From Escherichia coli (GTDB lineage: Bacteria; Pseudomonadota; Gammaproteobacteria; Enterobacterales; Enterobacteriaceae), in assembly GCF_011045215.1 (NCBI RefSeq), contig NZ_CP049201.1: a stretch of DNA of 64,000 nt, one strand, 5' to 3'. The translations under genes were made by a program, and so were the position numbers. The stretch's first letter is position 1, and the number at the start of each line of letters is the position of its first letter. The notes beneath the pieces are model-generated. The model was not told the DNA's origin. It ran no database searches and was given only the letters and a program-made list of their open reading frames with translations. Positions 41,613 through 60,917 of this stretch are shown here, piece after piece.

Positions 41613-42746
41613 ATGAAAAGCAAAGTACTGGCACTTTTAATTCCTGCCCTGCTCGCCGCAGGTGCTGCACATGCAGCCGAAGTTTATAATAAAGACGGCA
41701 ACAAATTAGATCTGTATGGCAAAGTTGATGGCCTGCATTATTTTTCTGATAATTCAGCGAAAGATGGCGACCAGAGCTATGCGCGTCTGGGTTTTAAAGG
41801 CGAAACCCAAATTAACGATCAACTTACTGGCTACGGTCAATGGGAATACAATATTCAGGCAAACAACACTGAATCTTCAAAAAACCAGTCATGGACCCGT
41901 CTGGCATTTGCCGGACTGAAATTTGCAGATTACGGTTCTTTCGATTACGGACGTAATTATGGCGTAATGTACGACATCGAAGGCTGGACCGATATGCTGC
42001 CTGAATTTGGCGGTGACTCTTATACCAATGCAGACAACTTTATGACTGGTCGTGCCAATGGCGTCGCGACTTATCGTAATACTGATTTCTTCGGTCTGGT
42101 AAATGGTCTGAACTTCGCGGTGCAGTATCAAGGTAACAACGAAGGTGCCAGTAATGGTCAGGAAGGCACCAACAACGGACGTGATGTTCGCCATGAAAAC
42201 GGTGACGGCTGGGGTCTTTCCACAACATATGATTTAGGCATGGGCTTTAGCGCTGGTGCGGCATACACCTCTTCTGACCGCACCAATGACCAGGTTAACC
42301 ATACTGCGGCGGGTGGTGATAAAGCAGACGCGTGGACTGCTGGGCTAAAATACGATGCTAACAATATTTACCTGGCAACCATGTATTCAGAAACGCGTAA
42401 TATGACCCCGTTTGGCGACAGCGATTATGCAGTTGCGAACAAAACCCAGAACTTTGAAGTCACTGCACAGTACCAGTTTGATTTTGGTCTGCGTCCGGCA
42501 GTCTCTTTCCTGATGTCTAAAGGCCGTGACCTGCACGCTGCCGGTGGTGCAGACAACCCGGCAGGTGTTGATGATAAAGATCTGGTTAAATACGCCGATG
42601 TTGGCGCGACTTACTATTTCAATAAAAACATGTCCACCTATGTTGACTATAAAATCAACCTGTTGGATGAAGATGACAGTTTCTACGCTGCCAACGGCAT
42701 CTCTACCGATGATATTGTCGCTTTAGGTCTGGTTTATCAGTTCTAA
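41613..42746 (+). CDS. ompN: Outer membrane porin OmpN
   Basis: 377 aa; signal peptide [21 protein letters not shown]; porin C-terminal YQF. Confidence 0.93.
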
Positions 42747-43873: not shown

Positions 43874-44980
43874 TCATACTAGTCGGAGCGAAGCCCTTGA
43901 TGGTGTTCTTTTGTTATTTCCGCCACTAATTGCCGCAACTCCATAAAGCAAACTACTCAATTCATCGAGAGGTACGTTAAGCTCATTACTCAAGTGAGCC
44001 AGATAAATGCCGTCTCCAGCCAGAGCAGTCATCATTTTTTCTATAACGAGTGATCTTTCGCGCTCAATTCCCCCCGGCTCACCGGTTCGATACCCCTTTG
44101 CCGTCGCATCACGCATCAAACTATTATACTGCCATTCCGTCAGCATATTTAGATTGCGCATTCTGACAATCAGGGCCATAGCCGAAACTTTCCAGAGTGA
44201 TTTCAATTGCACAATTTTATCAAACGTCGGGACCACCATCTTAACGGCCATCACGTTTTCCTGAGGCATTAGAAATGCAGAAGCAAAAGCATCCGCTTCA
44301 CGCTCAGCATCCTGCCCTTTGACTTCCCCTTGACGATGAAGTACTAGGTGAGCCAATTCATGTGCGGCATCAAAACGGCTGCGTTCACCTGACTTGCGTG
44401 TGTTAAGAAAGATATAAGGAACATCATCTTTCCAGAACGAAAAAGCATCAATACTCGCTGTTTCCTCTGAAAGCCAGAACACCTTAACTCCAAATTTCTC
44501 AAGTAGATGAACAACATTGGTGATACTCTTCTTACCAATCCCCCAAGCCTCGCGTATCGCTTGGGCAGCGACCTCAGGCTCACTTCCACGGAGATTCGGC
44601 AATTGAGGCGAAGGAAGAGTAAAGCGAGCATTAAAATAATCGCTAAGCATAACCCCTAAAGCACCTGCACCAATTGCCGCATGCTGGTCAGCAGCTTTTG
44701 TTGTGCGTAATGAACGAAATGAAACAGTCAATGGATCAATTGTTTCAACATCATCGCCAAAGAAAAAAGCCTCTGGATAATTTAAAGCACTAGCGTATGC
44801 GCGTACCGTCTCTGCCGTGGGTGCATAAAGACAATAATCTTTTTCGTATTCAATTACGATACGACTAGATAACCCGGTTCGCCTCGCCAGTTCTGCCAAG
44901 GTCAGTTTGCGTCTGATCCGCGCTAGCTTTAGTCGAGACGGATTAAAAAGACGTTTGACATCATCAACAGTGTTACTCAT
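43874..44980 (-). CDS. XRE-type HTH + ImmA/IrrE-family zinc metallopeptidase fusion protein
   Basis: N-terminal HTH (LARIRRKLTLAELARRTGLSSRIVIEYE); HEXXH motif with downstream Glu/LMP (AAHELAHLVLH...EREADAFASAFLMP); ATGA start/stop overlap with upstream gene. Confidence 0.8.
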   Translation of the reverse strand: MSNTVDDVKRLFNPSRLKLARIRRKLTLAELARRTGLSSRIVIEYEKDYCLYAPTAETVRAYASALNYPEAFFFGDDVETIDPLTVSFRSLRTTKAADQHAAIGAGALGVMLSDYFNARFTLPSPQLPNLRGSEPEVAAQAIREAWGIGKKSITNVVHLLEKFGVKVFWLSEETASIDAFSFWKDDVPYIFLNTRKSGERSRFDAAHELAHLVLHRQGEVKGQDAEREADAFASAFLMPQENVMAVKMVVPTFDKIVQLKSLWKVSAMALIVRMRNLNMLTEWQYNSLMRDATAKGYRTGEPGGIERERSLVIEKMMTALAGDGIYLAHLSNELNVPLDELSSLLYGVAAISGGNNKRTPSRASLRLV

Positions 44981-45648
44981 TTGCTTTCAACTGAAATTGA
45001 TATGTCATCATCAAAATCCTGTTCAGGGAAAATATCCGCACCTTCAAATTGCAGAGGAGCTAAAATAATTCGCTCACTCCACGCGCTTACTCTGGCAAAT
45101 CCGTCCTGATTCACCATCCCTACCGGATACGACACCTCACAGCGAATTTCTTTATTTGCCGCATCATAATAATACAGAACGATATAAGTTCGGGTGCTAT
45201 CTATCGGCGTGATCTCAGCTTTGCCTGAATGTAAGGTATCTGCTTGGAACATATCGAATGTACCCGGATTGTTGTGAACAATCGAGCGAGTTGCCTCTCC
45301 CTTTGCATTTTTGGTTTTAGGCAATCCATCAGGACGCCCGGTATGTCCGTCACCTGAGGTAATAATCAGATTAACCCCTTTGCTTGAATTAACGACCATT
45401 TCCATGCGATTGACTACTTCAGAAGACCAGCCGTTACCCTTACCAATCAGAATACGGCGAAGCGCGGCAACCATCTCACTCCAAAAGCGGAATCCAGCAT
45501 CCACTTTAGGGTGGAGCTTACTGGATTTGCGTCGCTCGTATAAAGCAGACATTAACGCATCGCGAATATCATTTTCTGTAAAGCCCAGTTTACTAAGTAC
45601 AAAATCCGAATCAATTCCTGTATGCAGAACACAATGAGGCATATTCAT
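44977..45648 (-). CDS. Hypothetical protein, partner of the HTH-peptidase gene
   Basis: ORF with GGGAG RBS before MNMPHCVLH...; stop overlaps next start (ATGA); no family recognised by eye. Confidence 0.6.
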   Translation of the reverse strand: MNMPHCVLHTGIDSDFVLSKLGFTENDIRDALMSALYERRKSSKLHPKVDAGFRFWSEMVAALRRILIGKGNGWSSEVVNRMEMVVNSSKGVNLIITSGDGHTGRPDGLPKTKNAKGEATRSIVHNNPGTFDMFQADTLHSGKAEITPIDSTRTYIVLYYYDAANKEIRCEVSYPVGMVNQDGFARVSAWSERIILAPLQFEGADIFPEQDFDDDISISVESK

Positions 45649-45884
45649 GAAAGTTTCTCCCATCACTTTTACTTCATGATTTTATCATAAAATTTATGCA
45701 AAAATCAAGAAGTGACACCCTGCAAGCGATTGTAGACTTTCTCTTGTTTTCTTACGTTCCTGCTCTCCAATTGCGCAATTGATTTCTTCAACAATATGAG
45801 AGTACACATCATAAACCTCCGACTGCAGCCAGCAACCGGAGCCTCATTCTTCAGATACCAGAACAACTCACTGCGACCTATTCG

Positions 45885-46448
45885 TTACTCAACATTAAAT
45901 GCTCGTATCGCATCTAAATCCTCCAGACTACTCAACTCCTCCTTCATCTCCCGCTGACGCTGATAAATCTCGTCATTGCGATCGACCTGCGCCTGAACCA
46001 TTGCAGTAAGTAGCTCATCCAGTTGTTGCATTGACAACTTTACCTGCTGATTTTCCGCATCACCCCATACCATGTTTTTCCGTGCCGTGACTGATTTTGC
46101 TGATATCACCACCGGGTAAAGACGGGCCATCGAATCCGGTCCCCCGTTCCAGCTATGACCGTTCCATTCAAAAATGAATGGCTGCGCCTCCTGCTCTGTA
46201 CGCCATGCTTCAATTTCCCGGCGTTTGGCTGCTTTTGCTGCTTCCAGCATCTCTGGCGTGACGGTGAACGGCGTTATTTCTCCCCACTTGCCGCTTTGCA
46301 GTTCCTGCCAGACTCGCTGCCCTGTCTCTGCTGTATCCGTGGCAGTTGCCGTATACGGAACCGGTTCATCCATGCCATCAAACAACACCCCGCAGTCAAT
46401 CGCGCCATTTTCAAGATAACGCGCATTTTCGATGCGTTTTATTTCCAT
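45885..46448 (-). CDS. Putative tail fibre assembly/chaperone protein (second module)
   Basis: Immediately downstream of second fibre gene with short overlap; size typical of Tfa; start placed at MEIKRIEN; weak sequence support. Confidence 0.5.
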   Translation of the reverse strand: MEIKRIENARYLENGAIDCGVLFDGMDEPVPYTATATDTAETGQRVWQELQSGKWGEITPFTVTPEMLEAAKAAKRREIEAWRTEQEAQPFIFEWNGHSWNGGPDSMARLYPVVISAKSVTARKNMVWGDAENQQVKLSMQQLDELLTAMVQAQVDRNDEIYQRQREMKEELSSLEDLDAIRAFNVE

Positions 46449-46455
46449 AAAACAC

Positions 46456-47880
46456 CTACGCAATACGTATGAACAAACCAATCATGACACTGGCTGACCC
46501 GGCAGACCCGAGTTCATCGCCTGACAGTGCACGATATGACCCCGGCATACCACCACCAGAACCCCGCACATATACGGAAACGCTGCCGTTATATCCAACC
46601 CCGCTACCGGTCGTGCCGTGACACATAAATTCAACCGCGCTCAGACGTGACCCCGGATAGCTGTACCCGCGTTTTATCCGGCGGTCGGTGTCTGCGTCTC
46701 CCTCACCGTTACAGGCCGCCAGTACAAGACTGCCTGTACCGTACCAGCCGTCCGTGGTACCGGGAGCAATACCGGACAGAAGAGAGATAATGTCCTGTGA
46801 GGTCATCTTCAGATTTTCCCAGCCAGTCAGATAACCATTACCTGTTGTCCAGTAGCGGCTGTAATAAACATCGCCATTAATACCGTAGAAAATAATGGCC
46901 TTTGCTGTATATCGCGGCTCCGGTGGATTATTGCGTGCCTCAACCCACCGGATTCTGACCACCCCGTTAAACAACACACCTCCGGATATGATTTTACTGC
47001 CACCCTCAACAAAATATTCACCCGGCGTCGCATTCCTTACCCATGCCAGAAAATCATCCTCTGTGTTAAAACGGATACGCTCTGCGGGCAAAAAAATATG
47101 CCCAAAACCAAATGCGCCAGGTGTCGCCAGACGACCTTCAGTCCGGTCACGAATGTCGCTCTGTGGCATCATTGTGGCAGCGCTTTTCAGTCCAAGATTA
47201 TCACGGGATTCCTGCTGAGCCTCTTCACCTTCATCAGCCAGCTCTGACAGGCGATTCGCCGTTTTCAGTGTCGCAGATAACGCAGTATCAATATCTGCTC
47301 TGGCCTGCTCTGCACCGGATGCGGCCTGTTTAGCAGCTTCAGCGTCCTTTTTTACCTCTGCGGCGGCATTCTCAACCTGCGAGGCCAGATTTTCGGCCTG
47401 TTGTTTACCCTCCGCAACAGCGTCGGCGTTCTGCTGAACACCTTCCGCCAGTTTTTTTACCTCTTCTTTTGCCCGGGCGGCAGCATCTGCATGTTGCCCT
47501 GCCTGTCGTTCGCTTTCTGTTGCGGTTTCGGCACCCTGCTGCGCCTGCGCCACCATTTCCTCAAATCGTTTCACCACGTCGGGTTTGAGGTCGCCTTCAT
47601 CCAGGGCAGTCAGAAAATCGTTCAGCGTGCCGGGCTTTGAGTCGTCGTATACAGCAATATCGCCAACACAGTACTCGTCGCGCCAGCCCTGTTTCAGATA
47701 TACGCAATATTTTCCGGTCTGCGCCTCAAAACAGTACTCGCCACAGTTTCCTGTCACCACGTCGGCAACTGTGCGCATCACCACCTCTGAGGTGTTTACC
47801 CGGGATTTCAGAATAATGTGGCATCCGGACATGGAGATACCTGCGCCATCAATCAGCGCACCTGATATCACTACAGACAT
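46456..47880 (-). CDS. Tail fibre protein 2 with lambda Stf-like N-terminal domain and divergent C-terminal domain
   Basis: N-terminus MSVVISGALIDGAG...VYDDSKPGTLNDFL resembles recalled side-tail-fibre N-terminal domain; Ala/Glu/Lys-rich coiled coil; Gly-rich C-terminus. Confidence 0.65.
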   Translation of the reverse strand: MSVVISGALIDGAGISMSGCHIILKSRVNTSEVVMRTVADVVTGNCGEYCFEAQTGKYCVYLKQGWRDEYCVGDIAVYDDSKPGTLNDFLTALDEGDLKPDVVKRFEEMVAQAQQGAETATESERQAGQHADAAARAKEEVKKLAEGVQQNADAVAEGKQQAENLASQVENAAAEVKKDAEAAKQAASGAEQARADIDTALSATLKTANRLSELADEGEEAQQESRDNLGLKSAATMMPQSDIRDRTEGRLATPGAFGFGHIFLPAERIRFNTEDDFLAWVRNATPGEYFVEGGSKIISGGVLFNGVVRIRWVEARNNPPEPRYTAKAIIFYGINGDVYYSRYWTTGNGYLTGWENLKMTSQDIISLLSGIAPGTTDGWYGTGSLVLAACNGEGDADTDRRIKRGYSYPGSRLSAVEFMCHGTTGSGVGYNGSVSVYVRGSGGGMPGSYRALSGDELGSAGSASVMIGLFIRIA

Positions 47881-47903
47881 AGTTTTTCTCGCGATAAATT
47901 AAA

Positions 47904-48449
47904 TCAGGAAGAGGCTTCCGGAGAGACGGGCCATTCAATGGCGTTATATGAGGCTTTATCAGTGACGGTGCTGAAATCCATCGCCTGCAGCGATTTCGCG
48001 TAAATGCGGTACGCTTTCAGCTTTTCCCTGTCTTCGTCGCTGATTAATCCCAGCAGCAGGTCTTTTTCCCATTCGCTGGTCATGATGCTGGCCTGTTGTA
48101 ACAGGGCATCGCGTTCATCTTCTGCTTTAAGTTTGTAGTCGAAAACAAATTCATCATTGCGGTAAAACCAGTAACCAGGCACGGTAATACGGCGATTAGC
48201 GGTAATATCAGGAACTTCAATAACACTGGCGTTACGGGGTTCAATACCTGTCACATCCTTACCGACCCACACCACGCGTCCGTCTCCGGTGTAAACCATT
48301 TTTATGGTGTCACTGGCAAAGTTCTTCTGTTCTTCATACCAGTTTTTGCCGTCTTCCGAAAAAAGCCAGGTGACATCATACTGTTTTGTCAGCTGATATT
48401 GTTCCGCGGTTTTCGGATTACCCGCAGTAATATTTTTTAAATGCAACAT
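47904..48449 (-). CDS. Tail fibre assembly protein (Tfa/gpG-like)
   Basis: 181 aa; C-terminal region (KLKAYRIYAKSL...IEWPVSP) resembles recalled Tfa proteins; directly follows fibre gene. Confidence 0.7.
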   Translation of the reverse strand: MLHLKNITAGNPKTAEQYQLTKQYDVTWLFSEDGKNWYEEQKNFASDTIKMVYTGDGRVVWVGKDVTGIEPRNASVIEVPDITANRRITVPGYWFYRNDEFVFDYKLKAEDERDALLQQASIMTSEWEKDLLLGLISDEDREKLKAYRIYAKSLQAMDFSTVTDKASYNAIEWPVSPEASS

Positions 48450-48451
48450 TG

Positions 48452-50005
48452 TTAAACACTCGCCACGTTATACCAGGTGCCGTTAATCAGTTTCTGAAGC
48501 GGTCGGTAATACACGCCGCCGATGTTATCTGCTGAATTTTTTCCGGTATCCTGCACATTAATACCGGATAATCCGTGGCCTGAAGGTGAGCGAAATGTCC
48601 AGGATTTTTCGTTACCTCCCGGGTTATAAAACATTTCGGAGCCATAACGCACATCCTGCACGCCGCCATTTCGCTGCTGGTAACGGGCATCGAAATTTCC
48701 ATAGTTTGATGGAACCATCTGTCCGTTTACAGCGAATGTGATACTGCCATCGGTATTTCTCTGGCTGTAGAAATGCCAGCCGGAATCATCACCAAGCTCT
48801 GCAACTACAGGTCGGGATGAATTACCCCATAAATTAAACGTTGCATTTTTCGTGGAGTTGTTGGCGCTGGATAACGTGAATTTTTTAGCATTTCCGGCCT
48901 GAATATTTTTTAACGCTATCGCCACACCATTCTGGAAACGAAATACATGCTGTCCATTCGCATAAACATCCAGAATGCCGTCGCCGTTTTGTTTTATACC
49001 TGTATCGTTATCCCCGAAAGCAATTGAGTTTCCGCCCAGCGCGTTCTGAACGCCGATACCCAGCGCACCATTGACCTGCGAACCACCGCCAACAGACACT
49101 TTATGCGACATGGATATTTCACCAGTCCGCAGATTAATAGTGAACGGGCGAAGTGGACCAATATCGCCATTCTCGCCCTGACCTTCACTGGTAGGGATAA
49201 GGTGCAGGCACTCTTCCGAACGACGAAAAATAAGGCCAAAAGCGTCGTTGAAAATCCTCAGCGCATTAACACCACGGATTTTCAGCTCCCCGGTCATCAA
49301 ATCACCAGATTTTTTTACATATCGCAGATCAAAATCTGAATAGATATTGCTGGGGTTTATCACGCTGAAATAGCTTTTCTCGCTATCAAGAAGGCAAATC
49401 AAAGGAATACCCTTAATGATATCATTCGCTACCAGCTCGGACTTGTTCCCCTTATAAAGTGGGAACGTACCAAGAACCTTTCCGCCTAGTGTTAGTTGAA
49501 GTGTCGCCGCGTTGGTATTGTTCTGAACGGGGAAGACGATAATCGGGGTTCGTAGCGTCCAATCTGTACCCTCATTAACAAAAAACGTCGAGGGAAGTTC
49601 CAGCGCCAGTGTGTTTGCAGTGCCACCAGCAACACCCGCAATATAATGACCGCTCTGAAGCTGCGCTATCTGTACGAAATAGTTTTCCGATCCACGCGTG
49701 GCAAAGTTAGCCACTACGTCATTAAGGGACCAACCTTTCGCGGTTGTTCCTTCCTGCCCACGAATGACTTTCAGCACGTCACCGTTTACCGATACCAGGT
49801 GACAAATCTCAAATGCAGACTCTTTATTATCGGTAAGCGTAATTTTTGCATAGACGCGTTGCCCGTTCGATTTATTTTCAAAATCGGCAGAAAGCAATTT
49901 TGCAAATTTAGCTCCCGTGCCCGGCATCACCGGAATATCAGTCTGAATCGTCGTAATATCACCAGCCAGTGCTGAAACAACGTTATTGCCGAATCCAAGA
50001 ATCAT
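48452..50005 (-). CDS. Tail fibre protein 1 (P2 gpH / Mu S / Stf-type C-terminal module)
   Basis: 517 aa; segment VNALRIFNDAFGLIFRRSEECLHLIPTSEGQGENGDIGPLRPFTINLRTGEISMSH matches a module I recall from P2 H-type fibres. Confidence 0.8.
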   Translation of the reverse strand: MILGFGNNVVSALAGDITTIQTDIPVMPGTGAKFAKLLSADFENKSNGQRVYAKITLTDNKESAFEICHLVSVNGDVLKVIRGQEGTTAKGWSLNDVVANFATRGSENYFVQIAQLQSGHYIAGVAGGTANTLALELPSTFFVNEGTDWTLRTPIIVFPVQNNTNAATLQLTLGGKVLGTFPLYKGNKSELVANDIIKGIPLICLLDSEKSYFSVINPSNIYSDFDLRYVKKSGDLMTGELKIRGVNALRIFNDAFGLIFRRSEECLHLIPTSEGQGENGDIGPLRPFTINLRTGEISMSHKVSVGGGSQVNGALGIGVQNALGGNSIAFGDNDTGIKQNGDGILDVYANGQHVFRFQNGVAIALKNIQAGNAKKFTLSSANNSTKNATFNLWGNSSRPVVAELGDDSGWHFYSQRNTDGSITFAVNGQMVPSNYGNFDARYQQRNGGVQDVRYGSEMFYNPGGNEKSWTFRSPSGHGLSGINVQDTGKNSADNIGGVYYRPLQKLINGTWYNVASV

Positions 50006-50628
50006 TTTTGAATCACCGTTGTTGCATAGGAATAAATAAAAGGGAGTTTTACATATTTCTGGTCAATGGCATCTTTCAGAAAATAGCCTATACCATCACC
50101 ATATTCTGGTATCTGAATAGAAAAAACACTGTCCGATACAGTCACGCTCACATCAAAAGTGTGCTGCAACGGCGGGTCTATTCCGTTTTTTCCATGAATA
50201 AAGCGCGCCACACGGCGCTTTAACCAGTCAATGCAGAAATGCGAACCGTCAGCCTTGTAAAAATTCCACGTTAATATTCGTTTGAAATAATCATCCGGAA
50301 CATACGATGCCTGCCCCGGAACATAATTCCGCATTGCCGCATAAGGGATTGTATTGTATTCAATGGTATCGTATGCGCCGCGTGCAATAGCCTCCTCGGA
50401 AACCTGTAGTAAAGGCCTTTCAACGCCATAAATCCCGAGAGCAATCCAGTCCAGCAATTGCCCGGTTATTGATTCCGATGTCCAGCATGGCAATGCCAGA
50501 TTGTTGAGTGAATCGAGGTATTCCTGAGCAATTTCATTGTATGCATCAAAGAACGCAACAACATTCGGATCATCTCTGTACTGCACAAACGGATAAGCAG
50601 GGAGAATTTTTTCAGTCAGATATTGCAT
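50002..50628 (-). CDS. Baseplate protein (gpI-like, by position)
   Basis: Lies between J-like gene and fibre; start placed at MQYLTEKILP to limit overlap. Confidence 0.5.
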   Translation of the reverse strand: MQYLTEKILPAYPFVQYRDDPNVVAFFDAYNEIAQEYLDSLNNLALPCWTSESITGQLLDWIALGIYGVERPLLQVSEEAIARGAYDTIEYNTIPYAAMRNYVPGQASYVPDDYFKRILTWNFYKADGSHFCIDWLKRRVARFIHGKNGIDPPLQHTFDVSVTVSDSVFSIQIPEYGDGIGYFLKDAIDQKYVKLPFIYSYATTVIQK

Positions 50629-51838
50629 ACTTGTTAACTTGAACCTGTGATGCCACCGTCGAAAAATAGGAATAGGTATCGCCATAAACCAGGCTTGTGT
50701 CTTTTGCCGGAGGAACAATATGGCCATTAATGCCAATGCTCACACTGATTGTTGAGATCAACGTCGCATCAACCAACAATCTGACGGAACTGGTAAAAAT
50801 ATCCTGGATTCGCAGCAGATTTATCGGGTGTCCGACTTCAATAGAATTGATGTAATCAGCAACGTTTTGCTGCACAGCCATAGCAATACCCGCCGGATCA
50901 ACATAATCATCAGATACAGTGTTCCAGGTGATTAGCACCATGACGTTTTGTGATGACGGGATAACGAACGGCACCTGATAAACATCTGGCGAAACGGTTA
51001 TTGAAACCGTGCGTTTTTCCACTGCCGCACCAGATGGATTGCTAACATCGTTGGTCAGTTTCGAAATATCCGGTACAGATTTGTAAATAGCATAAGCCAC
51101 ATCATACGGATCACCGCCACCAACAACCGCAACCCATTTCCCCAGCGACGACTGCCGGAAAGAAATCAGGTTTTCTCGCACACCGCTTACTGATTTGAGC
51201 ATCGCTTTAAAGCAATCCGGTGTTCCCTGCACACCAAACATGCCGGACTCCATGACTTCGGCGCGGTAAGATGCCCACGTTTGCGCCTCCTGACCTGGCA
51301 TCCCTGCGGTAAGGTTCGTGCATTTTACAGGCTGATCTTTGGGTACCGATGTAATGACCTGCGTTACGGTTCCTTCCGGTACAGCCCATGAGCCTGACGT
51401 TGTGGCCACACAGTAGACTGGCTCAGTCTGCCCGCTTTCCGGCACCACCGTATCGCGGGAAACTGCATACTGGTAGTTGCCGTCACCGACAACAAATCCT
51501 TTAGGGATACCAAACCCCGGCAACGCCTCAAACACCACGTATACCGCCGTATTTGTACTTAATCCCTTCTGTGCTCCATAAATGTTTCCGAGTTGCATCA
51601 ATAACGGAATATTTGCGCCGTATGGGCTTACGGAGTTAATAAGGTCCACCCGCGCCTGGTCTATTAATGCCAGCGCCCCGACTGCCGTGCTGGCAAGGTC
51701 AGTAATAAGCCCCGCCGGAAGGTTGGCTGTATATCCAGGTACTTTTTCAGCAACTCTGATGATAAGATCTGCAAGCAAATCATTGGGTGGCGTAGGCTGC
51801 GCCCCCGCACTGGTCATAGTAATTGGTATTTCTGACAT
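50612..51838 (-). CDS. Baseplate wedge protein (gpJ/gp47-like, by position and size)
   Basis: 408 aa; GGAG RBS; order W - J - I - fibre typical of contractile-tail baseplate clusters. Confidence 0.55.
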   Translation of the reverse strand: MSEIPITMTSAGAQPTPPNDLLADLIIRVAEKVPGYTANLPAGLITDLASTAVGALALIDQARVDLINSVSPYGANIPLLMQLGNIYGAQKGLSTNTAVYVVFEALPGFGIPKGFVVGDGNYQYAVSRDTVVPESGQTEPVYCVATTSGSWAVPEGTVTQVITSVPKDQPVKCTNLTAGMPGQEAQTWASYRAEVMESGMFGVQGTPDCFKAMLKSVSGVRENLISFRQSSLGKWVAVVGGGDPYDVAYAIYKSVPDISKLTNDVSNPSGAAVEKRTVSITVSPDVYQVPFVIPSSQNVMVLITWNTVSDDYVDPAGIAMAVQQNVADYINSIEVGHPINLLRIQDIFTSSVRLLVDATLISTISVSIGINGHIVPPAKDTSLVYGDTYSYFSTVASQVQVNKYAISD

Positions 51839-53747: not shown

Positions 53748-53786
53748 GAAAACCCCGACTGGGCCAACAGTCGGGTTTTTCGTTTT
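53748..53786. terminator. Intrinsic terminator-like hairpin between spike gene and downstream baseplate genes
   Basis: CCCGACTG-ggccaa-CAGTCGGG with flanking A/T runs on both strands. Confidence 0.55.
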
Positions 53787-53818: not shown

Positions 53819-54532
53819 TTAACCAGGATTTGGTTTCTTCGACGTAATCGTGCTGCTGCCGCTTTGAACACCAGTCACATCGTGGCTGTGGCCGCTGACG
53901 CTCACGCCGTTGATAACTGCATCCATCTCGACATTAAGAGGACCAATCAGCGAAGCGGTTGTATCCTTCATCTGGGCTTTGTCCTGGACGATCGGTCCGT
54001 TGAGGTGAATTTTCCCGTTCAGGAAAATATCTTCGGCCTCGAGGTAAACAGCTTTCGACTTTTGCCTGATTTCTTCCAGAGCCACCATTACCGAGCTACT
54101 GCCGTCCTCTGTTTTGAGGATCGCGCCATCCGGACCGTACAAAACGATTTTTTGCGGATCTTCGTCGGACCACTCCTTGTTTGCCAGTGGCACGAAAAAC
54201 AGGGGAGTGAGCGACATCGAGTAAGAAAGCGTTGCCATACCGGTTCCCAATCCGGACACACCGCGCAGTGATACATCAGCGGCAATTGTTACTCCTCGAT
54301 CGCCCGGCTGTATCGGGTAACGGATATACGGGAATGTGGCGACAGGGATTGTTATCTGCGGGAAGTTGATCCCCTCCGGCAACATATCAAACTGAACTGT
54401 CACTATTTGCCCGCAGATATCGACAACATGGCAGGGCAATTCGCGGCCTTTAAGCTCGGCTTGTTGGTTACCAGAACTGGTCATCATCTCCGACAGTGTT
54501 CGGAGAAACGGTAATTTTTGAGCGTTTGACAT
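53819..54532 (-). CDS. Baseplate central spike protein (gpV/gp5-like)
   Basis: 237 aa; C-terminal HxH motif (VSGHSHDVTG) as in metal-binding spike tips; position after hub. Confidence 0.6.
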   Translation of the reverse strand: MSNAQKLPFLRTLSEMMTSSGNQQAELKGRELPCHVVDICGQIVTVQFDMLPEGINFPQITIPVATFPYIRYPIQPGDRGVTIAADVSLRGVSGLGTGMATLSYSMSLTPLFFVPLANKEWSDEDPQKIVLYGPDGAILKTEDGSSSVMVALEEIRQKSKAVYLEAEDIFLNGKIHLNGPIVQDKAQMKDTTASLIGPLNVEMDAVINGVSVSGHSHDVTGVQSGSSTITSKKPNPG

Positions 54533-56473: not shown

Positions 56474-58447
56474 TTACCCCGGTATTTGTTGCGTTCCGGC
56501 GAGTTGTGCCAGTATGTCGGAACCCGGCGATTGTCGCACCTGAAGCTCAATTATTGCGCGGGCATTTTTGCCAGCACCCTGAAGGTTATCTCTGGCATTT
56601 CTTAGCTGATTCATAATACCAGGGTGTTGATCCAAAGCTCCCTGTATCTGAGGCAATAATTTAATTAAATATTTTACAGTCTCCATTCTCAAACTTAGAT
56701 TTCCATCTCTATCAATACGACCTCCGTTATATGCCGTAAGCATTTTTGCCACATCGCCTTTATAACGCCGGTTCAGATCATTTAAAAAGCGGCCAGCCGC
56801 AAGAGTGGATTTATTTGGGTCATAAACATCATCACCCACCAGACCATACTGTTTTGCGGTGCTATCCCAGAATTGCCACAACCCCTTAGCGAATCTACCT
56901 TTTTCATCTGGAGTTCCTCTTGCCAGAGGATTCCACGAAGATTCAACCTCCGCGATAGCTGACATCATATTTTTAGGAAGTCGATAAGTATTATTGGCTT
57001 GCTCTACAAAGTTCTGAATATTTCTCTTTAAATCATTAGGCATACGGTAATTTTTATATACATCATCCTGTTTATAAAACTCACCCGTATACTGATTTGT
57101 CATCGGGTTTGCTCCCGGCAACGCACCACCGAGATATTTATTCCCAAATGCCGCAAGAACTGGATCTGCCTGTTCAGCACCAACTCCGGTTCCGGGGAGA
57201 TATTTATCTTCCCCACCGATCCATTTGATAGCTGACCATATTGCTTTTGCAATCCGGCTCACCGCCAGAGAAAAATCGTCAAGATCATTTTTAAATTGTT
57301 CGCTATTCAGCCACTTACCAAGTTTCTCCAGCCCTTCGCCAGCCTCAGTGAGAATTTTCTGAAAATTTCCACCATTCAGAAAACCTTCAATATTGGATGT
57401 CAGCCCATCAGATGCACCTGTGATTAGTGGGTTATATCTGGCGAGAGCTGCATACCAGGAATTTGATATTCTGTTTCCATTTACCATCAGGTTACTCACC
57501 GTATCCTGATAACCTGACTGCATAGCTGGCGTGAGGTAAGCACCGAGCAACCTGGTATTTGATGCAAATTTCTCGTTCAGTTGGGGGATCTTGTCCAGAT
57601 TCGCTTCCACCTGGTTAGTTGTCGCGACATCAACAAATCCAAGCCCTTGTCCGTTGAGAATCCCCTGAGTAAGTCCTGAACCTTTATATTGCTTAACGAG
57701 AGATGCAAGCGCGCTCATAAGTTTGGGCAGATTCTTTGCTGCACCATCTCGAGGATCAATTCCAAGACTGACCAGACCAGCATAGTTTGGATCATTCGGA
57801 TTTTTCTGTGCGTTCGCCAGATGCTGAACCAGTTCTTCTGTGCCAGAAAAATATGGCGAATAGGTGGCACGTGCGGCCTGCATCTGTGCGGTTTCCATAC
57901 CCAGCCCCTGAGCCACGCTGTATTGCGCTGCAACCTTGCTCGCCATATATCCGTACCCGAAAGCACCGACCGAACCAAGCGCCGCAATTTTGCTCCCCCA
58001 GGATACAGTCGTTTTAAACAGCGTTTTCAGTCGTGAATTGGTCGTTTTAAGCGTTGAATTGATCTGCTTGTAAGTTTTCAGCGTCCCCTGAGCGTTTTTA
58101 CCCAGACTACTGAGATACTTATCAAACATCGTTTCGCCGCGACCTTTATAGTTGCTCACCAGCGAATCAGGTGTTTTTCCGCTACCGACAAAGCTCCCTT
58201 TTTCATCCCTTAAACGTCCATCGGTGGGCGCAGGTGAAGATGGTTTCCTGGGAGCCTGATTGGCTTCTCCGCCCGAGGTTGCCTGCTGCGTGCCACCTCC
58301 TAGACCTGTATTTGAAGGTATTTTAAGCGGCGTCCCCGCAGGGCCAATCATCAGCCCATTGCGATACTTTTCAAATATCGCCTCAAGTCGCTTAAGGTGT
58401 TCTTCATTAACGTCCAGTGTCAGAACTGGCATCTGATTACCTGACAT
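56474..58447 (-). CDS. Tail tape measure protein with lytic transglycosylase-like domain
   Basis: 657 aa, Gly/Ala-rich; SLT-like motif AIAEVESSWNPLA...GLWQFWDSTA; follows frameshift chaperone. Confidence 0.75.
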   Translation of the reverse strand: MSGNQMPVLTLDVNEEHLKRLEAIFEKYRNGLMIGPAGTPLKIPSNTGLGGGTQQATSGGEANQAPRKPSSPAPTDGRLRDEKGSFVGSGKTPDSLVSNYKGRGETMFDKYLSSLGKNAQGTLKTYKQINSTLKTTNSRLKTLFKTTVSWGSKIAALGSVGAFGYGYMASKVAAQYSVAQGLGMETAQMQAARATYSPYFSGTEELVQHLANAQKNPNDPNYAGLVSLGIDPRDGAAKNLPKLMSALASLVKQYKGSGLTQGILNGQGLGFVDVATTNQVEANLDKIPQLNEKFASNTRLLGAYLTPAMQSGYQDTVSNLMVNGNRISNSWYAALARYNPLITGASDGLTSNIEGFLNGGNFQKILTEAGEGLEKLGKWLNSEQFKNDLDDFSLAVSRIAKAIWSAIKWIGGEDKYLPGTGVGAEQADPVLAAFGNKYLGGALPGANPMTNQYTGEFYKQDDVYKNYRMPNDLKRNIQNFVEQANNTYRLPKNMMSAIAEVESSWNPLARGTPDEKGRFAKGLWQFWDSTAKQYGLVGDDVYDPNKSTLAAGRFLNDLNRRYKGDVAKMLTAYNGGRIDRDGNLSLRMETVKYLIKLLPQIQGALDQHPGIMNQLRNARDNLQGAGKNARAIIELQVRQSPGSDILAQLAGTQQIPG

Positions 58448-59128
58448 TCAATACCCCTCCCGGCGTCGTGCATTTACGCAGCTCACGAAACTGAGCTGCT
58501 GTTTTTACATTCAGACCGGAATTTGCCCAGATGTCGCTGAATCCGTCTCCGGCTGAGTAGTCGAGGATGTCGCTGATAACGTGCTCGCCGTCGCGCCAGA
58601 ACTGGCGACAGGCTTCAATGTCGGCAATGAAGCAATCCATTCCGTAAGACTCAAGGATGAAGTGCGACTGTTCCACATTCCACTGACTACCAGCATCATC
58701 TGTTCCGTCTGCTCCGGTGTGTTTATCGACGAGACGCATGTAAAAAAAACGAGTTCACCTGCCACATCATCAAATTCAACGATGCCGCGCTCTAGCGCCA
58801 TATCAAGCGGGATCGTGTCGTAGCCTTTCCCTTCGACTGGGTAAACCAGATTCGCAAGACGAATGATTTCATTCACGAGCGTATTGCGAACGCCCTTTTC
58901 GCCATCCCAGATATTCATATCTGAGGAGATCCGTTCCAGCATAAGGCAGGCGATACGCGGCCCCGAAACGACGCCAAGACCTTCTGAAAAAATGGCAGAA
59001 AAGGTTTTACTCAGAATAAAGAAATGCTCTTTAAACACCTCTTTGCTGATCGGCGTGGCATGGATCCAGCCGTTCCCCTTTTCTGTCCGGACAGGAATAA
59101 TCAGATTCAAATTTCGCGCGATTTTCAT
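58437..59128 (-). CDS. Tail assembly chaperone, 0-frame product 59128..58511 and -1 frameshift fusion extending to 58437
   Basis: Slippery T-tract (minus 58749-58742) in overlap of two frames; second frame ends 8 nt inside TMP start; classic chaperone arrangement between tube and TMP. Confidence 0.65.
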
Positions 59129-59568
59129 ACCAGATCCCACATTTCAGAGTTGATGTAATACGTACCGGTAATGGTGATGGCTACACCAGGCTCGCCCCCG
59201 GCGAAGGTCATATCCTGCACGTTGGTGATCGCCGTGTTATAGATATCGAAGTCACCGAATACCGTGCTGTCGCTATACACTTTTGCGTCGCCGATCGTGG
59301 CGTTCTTTTCCCATTGAGCCTTGAATTGTTTCCCCAGCGCCTGGCTACGCAGCAGATGAACACGCGCCTGTAAAATCATGTATGGCTGCGGCGACTGCAC
59401 GGCTCCCGTCATGGCGGGTAAAAACTCCGTGATATTGCCCTGAAAGGACAATTCGACGCCTTCTTTTGCCAGAAATGAGGCGGACACATTCAGTTCGGAA
59501 TGAGAGGTGAATTTAACGCTGGCGCGAACCCGGTTAAGGGTGCCAACGGGGATCATTGGATTAGGCAC
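59125..59568 (-). CDS. Tail tube protein (by position/size)
   Basis: 147 aa between sheath-sized gene and chaperone; ATGA overlap with chaperone start. Confidence 0.55.
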   Translation of the reverse strand: MPNPMIPVGTLNRVRASVKFTSHSELNVSASFLAKEGVELSFQGNITEFLPAMTGAVQSPQPYMILQARVHLLRSQALGKQFKAQWEKNATIGDAKVYSDSTVFGDFDIYNTAITNVQDMTFAGGEPGVAITITGTYYINSEMWDLV

Positions 59569-59579
59569 GGTTCAGTCCC

Positions 59580-60917
59580 TCACGAAAGCTGCATTGTCAC
59601 ATTGATGTTAAAAATGATTTCGACAAATCCGCGCATCGGCGTATAGGAGGCCGAAAGGCCCGCATAACGCCCGATACCGTAATCATTCGGATTCGTGTTG
59701 ATATACTGGCGGAAAGGCACTGCATCTACGACAGGCTGGCCGTTGACCAGGCCGTAAGATACGCCCGTATTGAACACCGCCTGTGCGACCTGCTGCAGAC
59801 GGTCGATCCCGTCCTGGTTGTAGTAAAGCGGGTTAATTGGGTTATTGCAGCCGTTGATCACCGCGTTGGCGAGCTGCATATCGACGTTAATCTGCACCCA
59901 ATCCACGGAATACCAGTACGTCATATCGTTACCGTCACTGGTAACGCCTTTCACCAGGATCGTGTTGGAGATTCCACCCTCAGCACCCGTTTCGATGTAG
60001 TTAATATTCTGCTTCGTCATCGTGGCCAGAATGGAATTTTTGCCCTTGTGGGCGTTTACCGCCTGTAAATAGCGAAATGCCATCGGCGGCACCTTGTTGA
60101 TTTCTGAAGGTGATGCGGAAACATAGTTCCACATTACGGCTGCTGCCGCGTTTGTCGCCGGGTACGTATCATCCGCCGTTGCAATAACCGACTTAATACC
60201 GGCATAAGGCGAAACGTAATTCGTGTCGTCCGGCGTTTTCGTCAGCACGAAGAAATACTGCATCGCTTCGTTGGCGGTGTGGAGTTTTGCCAGACTGATA
60301 AACTCTGCGTCACCATCCCACGGCTGCGGCACCAGATACGCATAAAAACGCAGGAGCGGATCTTCCATATAAGCTTTCAGTGCAGCGATTTCCTTACTGA
60401 CTCCGCCTTTCTGTACTCCCAACTCCAGCAGGTAAATCCCCACTGAATTTCCCTGGGCAAAAAACGTGTTTACTGCCGTCACCAGATTTTCACTGCCAGC
60501 AATGGAAAACTGACCCAGTGTCACTGGCGAACCGGAAAGCTGAGAATCAGCTATTGTCCAGGTCAGTGTTTTTTCATCCGCGACGGTAGCAGTATATTCG
60601 CCGTTCCACGCGTCGGGAGAGCAACCGGAAACGACAATCTTTACCTCAGAACTGTTTTCGCGCCGGATATTACTCCCTTCCGGAAGCGTCATCGTAACAG
60701 TGACGTTTGTCGCAGATTTTCCTGCGGCTGCTGCCGACAGTGCTGCAATCGGATTTTTAACCAGATCGTTGATATCCTGATTACGGGTGAGTAATACGGG
60801 TTTCCCAGGCTCATGAGTCGTGGAGCCAAACGAGAGAACCGCGGACATCTGCTGCAAATTCGAGGGAATGGCCCCGATGGTCTGGGACACATTCACCGTG
60901 ACGATATTAAATCCCAT
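59580..60917 (-). CDS. Tail sheath protein (by position/size)
   Basis: 445 aa immediately upstream of tube. Confidence 0.55.
   Translation of the reverse strand: MGFNIVTVNVSQTIGAIPSNLQQMSAVLSFGSTTHEPGKPVLLTRNQDINDLVKNPIAALSAAAAGKSATNVTVTMTLPEGSNIRRENSSEVKIVVSGCSPDAWNGEYTATVADEKTLTWTIADSQLSGSPVTLGQFSIAGSENLVTAVNTFFAQGNSVGIYLLELGVQKGGVSKEIAALKAYMEDPLLRFYAYLVPQPWDGDAEFISLAKLHTANEAMQYFFVLTKTPDDTNYVSPYAGIKSVIATADDTYPATNAAAAVMWNYVSASPSEINKVPPMAFRYLQAVNAHKGKNSILATMTKQNINYIETGAEGGISNTILVKGVTSDGNDMTYWYSVDWVQINVDMQLANAVINGCNNPINPLYYNQDGIDRLQQVAQAVFNTGVSYGLVNGQPVVDAVPFRQYINTNPNDYGIGRYAGLSASYTPMRGFVEIIFNINVTMQLS

Follow-up and report, generated by a model that had tools for sequence, protein, structure and literature searches.

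A probable central spike of the gp138/gpV class, with a C-terminal HxH apex, in an Escherichia coli prophage

We analyzed a window of 64,000 nt of E. coli DNA (contig NZ_CP049201.1), in which a gene for a 237-aa protein lies within a string of tail and baseplate genes on the minus strand (Table 1). Read along that strand, the string consists of a sheath-sized gene, a tube-sized gene, a tape-measure-like gene, two genes for proteins that belong to phage-specific families (222 aa and 88 aa), the hub gene and then the spike gene. Downstream of the spike gene follow genes for a 115-aa protein, an HSDR_N endonuclease-like protein, baseplate J and a 244-aa protein, and lastly two fibre/assembly-protein pairs. 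The series of tape measure, hub, spike, wedge, J and fibres agrees with the order of gp42–gp49 in phage Mu, and it is by synteny with Mu that we infer the sheath assignment. The spike is thus encoded beside the hub in a contractile-tail baseplate module. The sequence-only reading had placed it after a hub-sized gene, which is correct because the upstream 335-aa gene matches PHROG 196, 'baseplate hub'. When compared with the PDB, the hub protein sequence gave no match, and the 115-aa protein gave only a chance-level match (E = 0.4) to an unrelated transporter subunit.

Table 1. Features of the prophage tail region and its surroundings (positions in the window)
Feature	Position	Strand	Remarks
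Porin gene	41613..42746	+	Classical Gram-negative porin; Porin_1 E = 1e-145
Rosmer-type pair	43874..45666	-	Two overlapping genes, PADLOC match
Fibre genes	45885..50005		
Baseplate J/gp47-like wedge protein	50612..51838	-	Pfam Baseplate_J E = 7.1e-8; PHROG 6 E = 1.2e-37
HSDR_N protein, 391 aa	51879..53054	-	HSDR_N E = 5.6e-14; PHROG 4225 'endonuclease' E = 1e-148
Putative TTG-start ORF, 67 aa	53533..53736	-	Between hairpin and 115-aa gene
Terminator-like hairpin	53754..53775		8-bp stem, 6 G-C pairs; T-runs on both strands; 44 nt past spike stop
Central spike (membrane-puncturing) protein gene, gp138/gpV class (probable)	53819..54532	-	237 aa
Spike aa 206–237: Apex domain with HxH	53822..53917	-	Sub-threshold PF18946 match at aa 209–228; aligned with HTH of gp138
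Spike aa ~121–205: β-helical shaft, trimerisation region	53918..54172	-	Aligns with gp138 fragment 3PQH
Spike aa 1–120: N-terminal helix (aa 3–27) and five-stranded OB-fold	54173..54532	-	Includes nearly invariant loop, aa 86–108
Spike loop, aa 86–108	54217..54277		
Baseplate hub gene, 335 aa	54532..55539	-	PHROG 196, E = 4.7e-43; precedes the spike gene as gp44 precedes gp45 in Mu
Tape-measure-sized tail protein, 657 aa, with SLT lytic transglycosylase domain	56474..58447	-	Pfam SLT at aa 481–578, E = 1.2e-20
Tube-sized gene	59125..59568	-	After sheath-sized gene
Sheath-sized tail protein, 445 aa (assignment by synteny)	59580..60917	-	Size, position upstream of tape measure; weak sub-threshold DUF3383

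The region belongs to an E. coli prophage akin to phage Rac-SA53, in which the counterpart of the 657-aa tail protein is annotated as a lytic transglycosylase. An 8.5-kb region around the spike gene matched 106 of 5,426 complete E. coli genomes (∼2%), with near-identical proteins that are annotated 'phage baseplate protein'. A terminator scan picked out the hairpin past the spike stop, which sits amid the run of tail and baseplate genes and resembles a bidirectional terminator (folding energy as RNA –22.5 kcal/mol, z = –3.1). The prophage copy in E. coli C7 has this hairpin, and Rac-SA53 lacks it. The putative 67-aa ORF beyond the hairpin encodes a product with a hydrophobic C-terminal half; at this site a 45-aa gene (rac58) is annotated in Rac-SA53, and strain C7 has no annotated gene there in RefSeq.

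The 391-aa HSDR_N gene separates the 115-aa baseplate gene from that for baseplate J, and its product carries the N-terminal domain of type I restriction-enzyme R subunits; PADLOC found no defence-system match for this neighbour. At the corresponding site, downstream of the next baseplate gene, Rac-SA53 instead has an antirepressor gene and two genes of unknown function, on the opposite strand. That different genes occupy the same spot points to a hotspot for cargo ('moron') genes within the baseplate operon. At the fibre-side end of the prophage, the two overlapping genes of the Rosmer-type pair encode a 229-aa protein matching RmrT (E = 1.3e-59) and a 368-aa protein matching RmrA (E = 5.6e-143), the latter with HTH_3 and Peptidase_M78 domains. 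Judged from these matches, the pair is probably a prophage-carried anti-phage defence or toxin–antitoxin module. The porin gene, ∼1.1 kb from the RmrA gene, appears to lie in the host chromosome just past the prophage end.

The spike ORF starts with an ATG at 54532..54530 whose first base is also the last base of the hub gene's TAA (GTGTAATG; TAATG), and a Shine–Dalgarno element, GAGG, is found 5 nt upstream of this ATG. The stop/start overlap and the GAGG suggest that the hub and spike genes are translationally coupled. The product contains four histidines, at positions 35, 176, 215 and 217, and its sole HxH is H215-S-H217, located 20 residues from the C-terminus (codons at 53890..53888 for H215 and 53884..53882 for H217). 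The C-terminus, including His215-Ser-His217, reads ...VSGHSHDVTGVQSGSSTITSKKPNPG; over a longer span it reads ...INGVSVSGHSHDVTGVQSGSSTITSKKPNPG, and the final residues are ...DAVINGVSVSGHSHDVTGVQSGSSTITSKKPNPG. A C-terminal HxH in a 237-aa ORF had been claimed in the sequence-only reading. Motif and ORF are both confirmed; the minus strand, which had been left unstated, has to be added.

To describe the domains of the protein, we used structure models and family alignments. A database search gave 182 relatives of the spike, 68 of which, with 48–95% identity, made up the conservation alignment. An OB-fold domain is present at the N-terminus, as in the class of Apex-bearing spikes, and should dock onto the hub. 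For the shaft, a profile search against the C-terminal fragment of phi92 gp138 (3PQH) gave E = 6.8e-6. The Pfam model of a β-helical trimerisation domain, PF21930, was matched by 41 of the 68 homologues and the Pfam Apex model by 24 (E ≤ 0.1; best 5.9e-5). In an AF2 monomer model, pLDDT was 86–93 in the C-terminal ∼100 residues (aa 140–220) and just 44–73 in the N-terminal half. We also modeled aa 118–237 as a linked trimer (three copies joined by 40-residue Gly/Ser linkers, with a 16-sequence alignment made likewise). Mean pLDDT was 32.7, too low for the model to be used, so that the six-histidine geometry was not reproduced.

One stretch of the N-terminal domain stands apart. The loop VSLRGVSGLGTGMATLSYSMSLT, aa 86–108, is among the best-conserved parts of the family, yet its AlphaFold pLDDT is below 50. 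Its nearly invariant consensus, S-L-R-G-x-S-G-L-G-x-G-x-A over aa 88–100, includes S88 and G96, which are invariant, and L89, R90, G91, S93, G94, L95, G98 and A100, each conserved in at least 90%. This loop may form the interface with the hub or the tape measure and be ordered only in the assembly.

The spike fold predicted by the sequence-only reading was recovered in structure searches. In a Foldseek comparison with the PDB, ranks 1–22 were taken exclusively by central spikes or puncturing proteins from contractile systems, among them phage SN Orf41, E217 gp43, Pa193 gp44, the R2 pyocin spike, phi92 gp138, Mu gp45 and P2 gpV. Sequence searches of the PDB agreed. With the single sequence (phmmer), phi92 gp138 ranked first (E = 8.4e-5 to 1.1e-4), and with the family profile the match to gp138 reached E = 1.4e-7, pairing spike aa 67–236 with gp138 74–246. 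Similarity to gp138 was significant across both the OB-fold and the β-helix/Apex parts. In the profile alignment, spike GVSVSGHSHDVTGVQSGSSTITSKKPNPG sits on gp138 GIGLHTHTHPVRGVETGGSTVTSDKPNGG, which places HxH on HxH within an apex tail common to both proteins. Fainter profile matches were seen to phage SN gp41, E217 gp43, Pa193 gp44 and the R2 pyocin spike (4RU3, 8EON_F, 9B45_g and 4S37).

Curated models placed the protein less well. The Pfam Apex model PF18946 ('GpV Apex motif') scored 14.2 bits at aa 209–228 (E = 0.047), short of its gathering threshold of 20.8 bits, and NCBIfam TIGR01644 (phage_P2_V) scored 18 bits at aa 126–227 (E = 0.0017), short of the curated cut-off of 46.75 bits. 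A PHROG search returned no functional family, the sole match being phrog_1847 (E = 0.0064), of unknown function, and PADLOC matched the spike to no defence system. When the family profile was aligned with single sequences by hhalign, neither P2 gpV (probability 3%) nor Mu gp45 (0.8%) was significant; despite the low probability, the short local alignments were sensible, with HSH on HIH of Mu. By sequence, then, the spike belongs with phi92 gp138, to which it is closer than to P2 gpV, and is not a member of the P2 V family, though by analogy it may well work like gpV.

The sequence-only reading had called the protein 'gpV/gp5-type'. The homology to spikes of the gp138/gpV class stands, and the gp5 part does not: the label is loose because T4 gp5 is without HxH and has a separate PAAR protein, gp5.4, instead (bioRxiv 10.1101/2023.02.25.529910). 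The HxH cage belongs to the class of gpV, gp138, Mu gp45 and pyocin spikes (R-pyocin PA0616), not to gp5. A protein of the T4 gp5 or VgrG type would have a blunt β-helix with no metal cage of its own, capped by PAAR and perhaps carrying a lysozyme or effector domain. We consider this very improbable here. At 237 aa the protein is far below the size of gp5 or VgrG, and its hub is encoded by a separate gene. We found in it no gp27 domain and no lysozyme or effector domain, and a muralytic SLT domain resides in the tape-measure-like protein. Moreover, the protein ends in an HxH Apex of its own, and such an Apex takes the place of a PAAR cap (bioRxiv 10.1101/2023.02.25.529910).

How much does the HxH motif itself say? 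An Apex can be recognised by its C-terminal HxH; in it, according to work on P2, the three copies of HxH form an octahedral cage around Fe (bioRxiv 10.1101/2023.02.25.529910). We shuffled the spike protein 100,000 times; HxH occurred anywhere in 5.0% of cases, and in 0.7% it fell among the last 35 residues. The motif alone is therefore only mildly unlikely and is weak evidence. Its significance comes from its conservation in homologues. H215 and H217 are invariant in all 68 aligned sequences, in which invariant positions total only 21. The residue between them is S, G, D, N, P, E, T, K, I, A or Q, and this free choice at the middle position, flanked by invariant histidines, reads as the signature of a true H-any-H motif. 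In both sequence and profile searches, HSH of the spike aligned onto HTH of the solved phi92 gp138.

HxH cages are also known from phage tail fibres and tailspikes (bioRxiv 10.1101/2023.02.25.529910), so the motif by itself is not diagnostic. The protein could on these grounds be a fibre- or tailspike-like trimer in which HxH merely keeps the chains in register, rather than the central puncturing device, and ORF6 of phiv142-3, a 'tail fibre', has been reported with an HxH region like that of gp138 (PMC7724020). Yet the gene lies between hub and wedge genes and outside the fibre genes, the protein has an N-terminal OB-fold, and its top structural and sequence matches are all central spikes, with no fibres among them. 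We therefore regard a fibre as scarcely credible. The 'iron acquisition' lead offered by phiv142-3 ORF6 was rejected: the protein is described as a tail-fibre protein and has only 24% coverage to gp138 (PMC7724020). Phage phiv142-3 was absent among the 19 phage records that matched the spike.

It is equally hard to credit that the gene has decayed in a cryptic prophage, keeping the motif but making no functional spike: this is a chromosomal prophage copy, and the window ends inside the prophage, so that completeness cannot be judged, but the ORF is full length (237 aa, as in most homologues) with every invariant family position kept, the surrounding tail module is intact and translationally coupled, and two viable phages, Rac-SA53 and vB_Apl-pPE4, have modules almost identical to it.

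The spike assignment of the sequence-only reading is thus borne out by homology to gp138, by the alignment of HxH on HxH, by the invariance of H215 and H217 and by the Mu-like gene order. We are highly confident that this is the gene for the central spike in the baseplate of an E. coli prophage with a contractile tail and Mu-like organization, with a mechanism read from homology. By analogy to solved relatives, trimerisation, the identity of the metal and a piercing role can be proposed. Three copies of the protein would form one needle, as expected from homology to P2 gpV, phi92 gp138 and Mu gp45. The N-terminal helix and OB-fold (aa 1 to ∼120) would rest on the trimeric hub and close off the end of the tail tube. 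Residues ∼121–205 of the three chains would wind into a rigid, intertwined, triple-stranded β-helix, and residues ∼206–237 would form a conical Apex, to which each of the three chains would contribute H215 and H217 for an octahedral cage of six histidines enclosing a buried metal. In solved relatives this metal is Fe.

When the sheath contracts, it would force the spike across the outer membrane in the manner of a mechanical drill bit; the spike would then be shed. Work on P2 describes the spike as a mechanical drill bit and finds its Apex dispensable in laboratory infections (bioRxiv 10.1101/2023.02.25.529910). Once the spike is lost, the tube would open, the SLT domain of the tape-measure-like protein could act on peptidoglycan, and DNA could exit. 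Because the spike is without an enzymatic domain, it is probably this SLT domain that cleaves peptidoglycan; given its presence in a tape-measure-sized protein, cell-wall cutting appears to travel with the tape measure and not with the spike.

Much of this is not new. The spike is a routine part of a common prophage and has been annotated before, and the biology of the iron-loaded histidine cage and the drill-bit spike has been published since 2012. We also considered whether this widespread family of enterobacterial prophage spikes is a distinct subfamily, whose loop docks the hub or tape measure, or binds cargo, in a way unseen in solved spikes. The scores below the Apex and TIGR01644 cut-offs, the lack of a functional PHROG and the unplaced loop at aa 88–100 could be read in this way, and we think it unlikely. 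More speculatively, an Fe-loaded prophage spike might affect the iron physiology of the host; an effect on host iron has been claimed for a different HxH tail protein (PMC7724020). The practical consequence is one of annotation. A subfamily that falls under the Apex and TIGR01644 thresholds is one in which automated pipelines miss the spike assignment despite clear homology to a solved spike, and the 'phage baseplate protein' and neighboring 'hypothetical proteins' can be relabelled as a gp138-like central spike with an HxH Apex and a separately encoded hub. Beyond annotation, the importance is small.

Among known proteins, those of the same family in the strict sense are bppV of Rac-SA53 (ALP46885.1, 'putative baseplate protein') and RefSeq WP_000063620.1, which are 94.5–95% identical to the spike over their full length, with few substitutions and the same neighbours. 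A protein of vB_Apl-pPE4 is ∼95% identical. More distant phages share only parts of the protein. The 'puncturing protein' of Pantoea phage PdC23 (L005, 2501..3217) has the N-terminal ∼150 residues, the OB-fold part, in common with the spike and a different apex, still with SHVH. In the Erwinia jumbo phage PhiEaH1, a protein of 326 aa (L006, 1739..2719) has the C-terminal 78 residues in common, at 50% identity, with GHDH. From these two cases, spike domains appear to be exchanged between phages while HxH persists.

The closest solved relative by sequence is phi92 gp138 (PDB 3PQI and 3PQH; chain t, entry listed as 21vq). The two proteins are similar in size (237 versus 247 aa) and homologous over spike aa 67–237, with the same domain order of OB-fold, β-helix and Apex and with HxH equally far from the C-terminus. 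They have in common the tail H-x-H-x-V-x-G-V-x-x-G-x-S-T-x-T-S-x-K-P-N. However, identity is just ∼20%, and the first ∼66 residues of the spike are unaligned. The phages differ too: phi92 is a large lytic myovirus, whereas the spike described here comes from a temperate prophage of ∼50 kb with Mu-like order of tail genes. P2 gpV (PDB 3QR8) is the archetype of the Fe-loaded HxH Apex (H197/H199), yet it has no significant sequence similarity to the spike. Its apex is HTHKHPGDSGGTTG, in place of which the spike has a gp138-like tail, and in P2 gene V is the first gene of a separate operon, remote from hub gene D, whereas the spike gene adjoins its hub. Finally, the Mu central spike gp45 (PDB 3VTO; 9KI1 chain V) is shorter, at 197 aa, with a P2-type apex sequence and similarity that is not significant.
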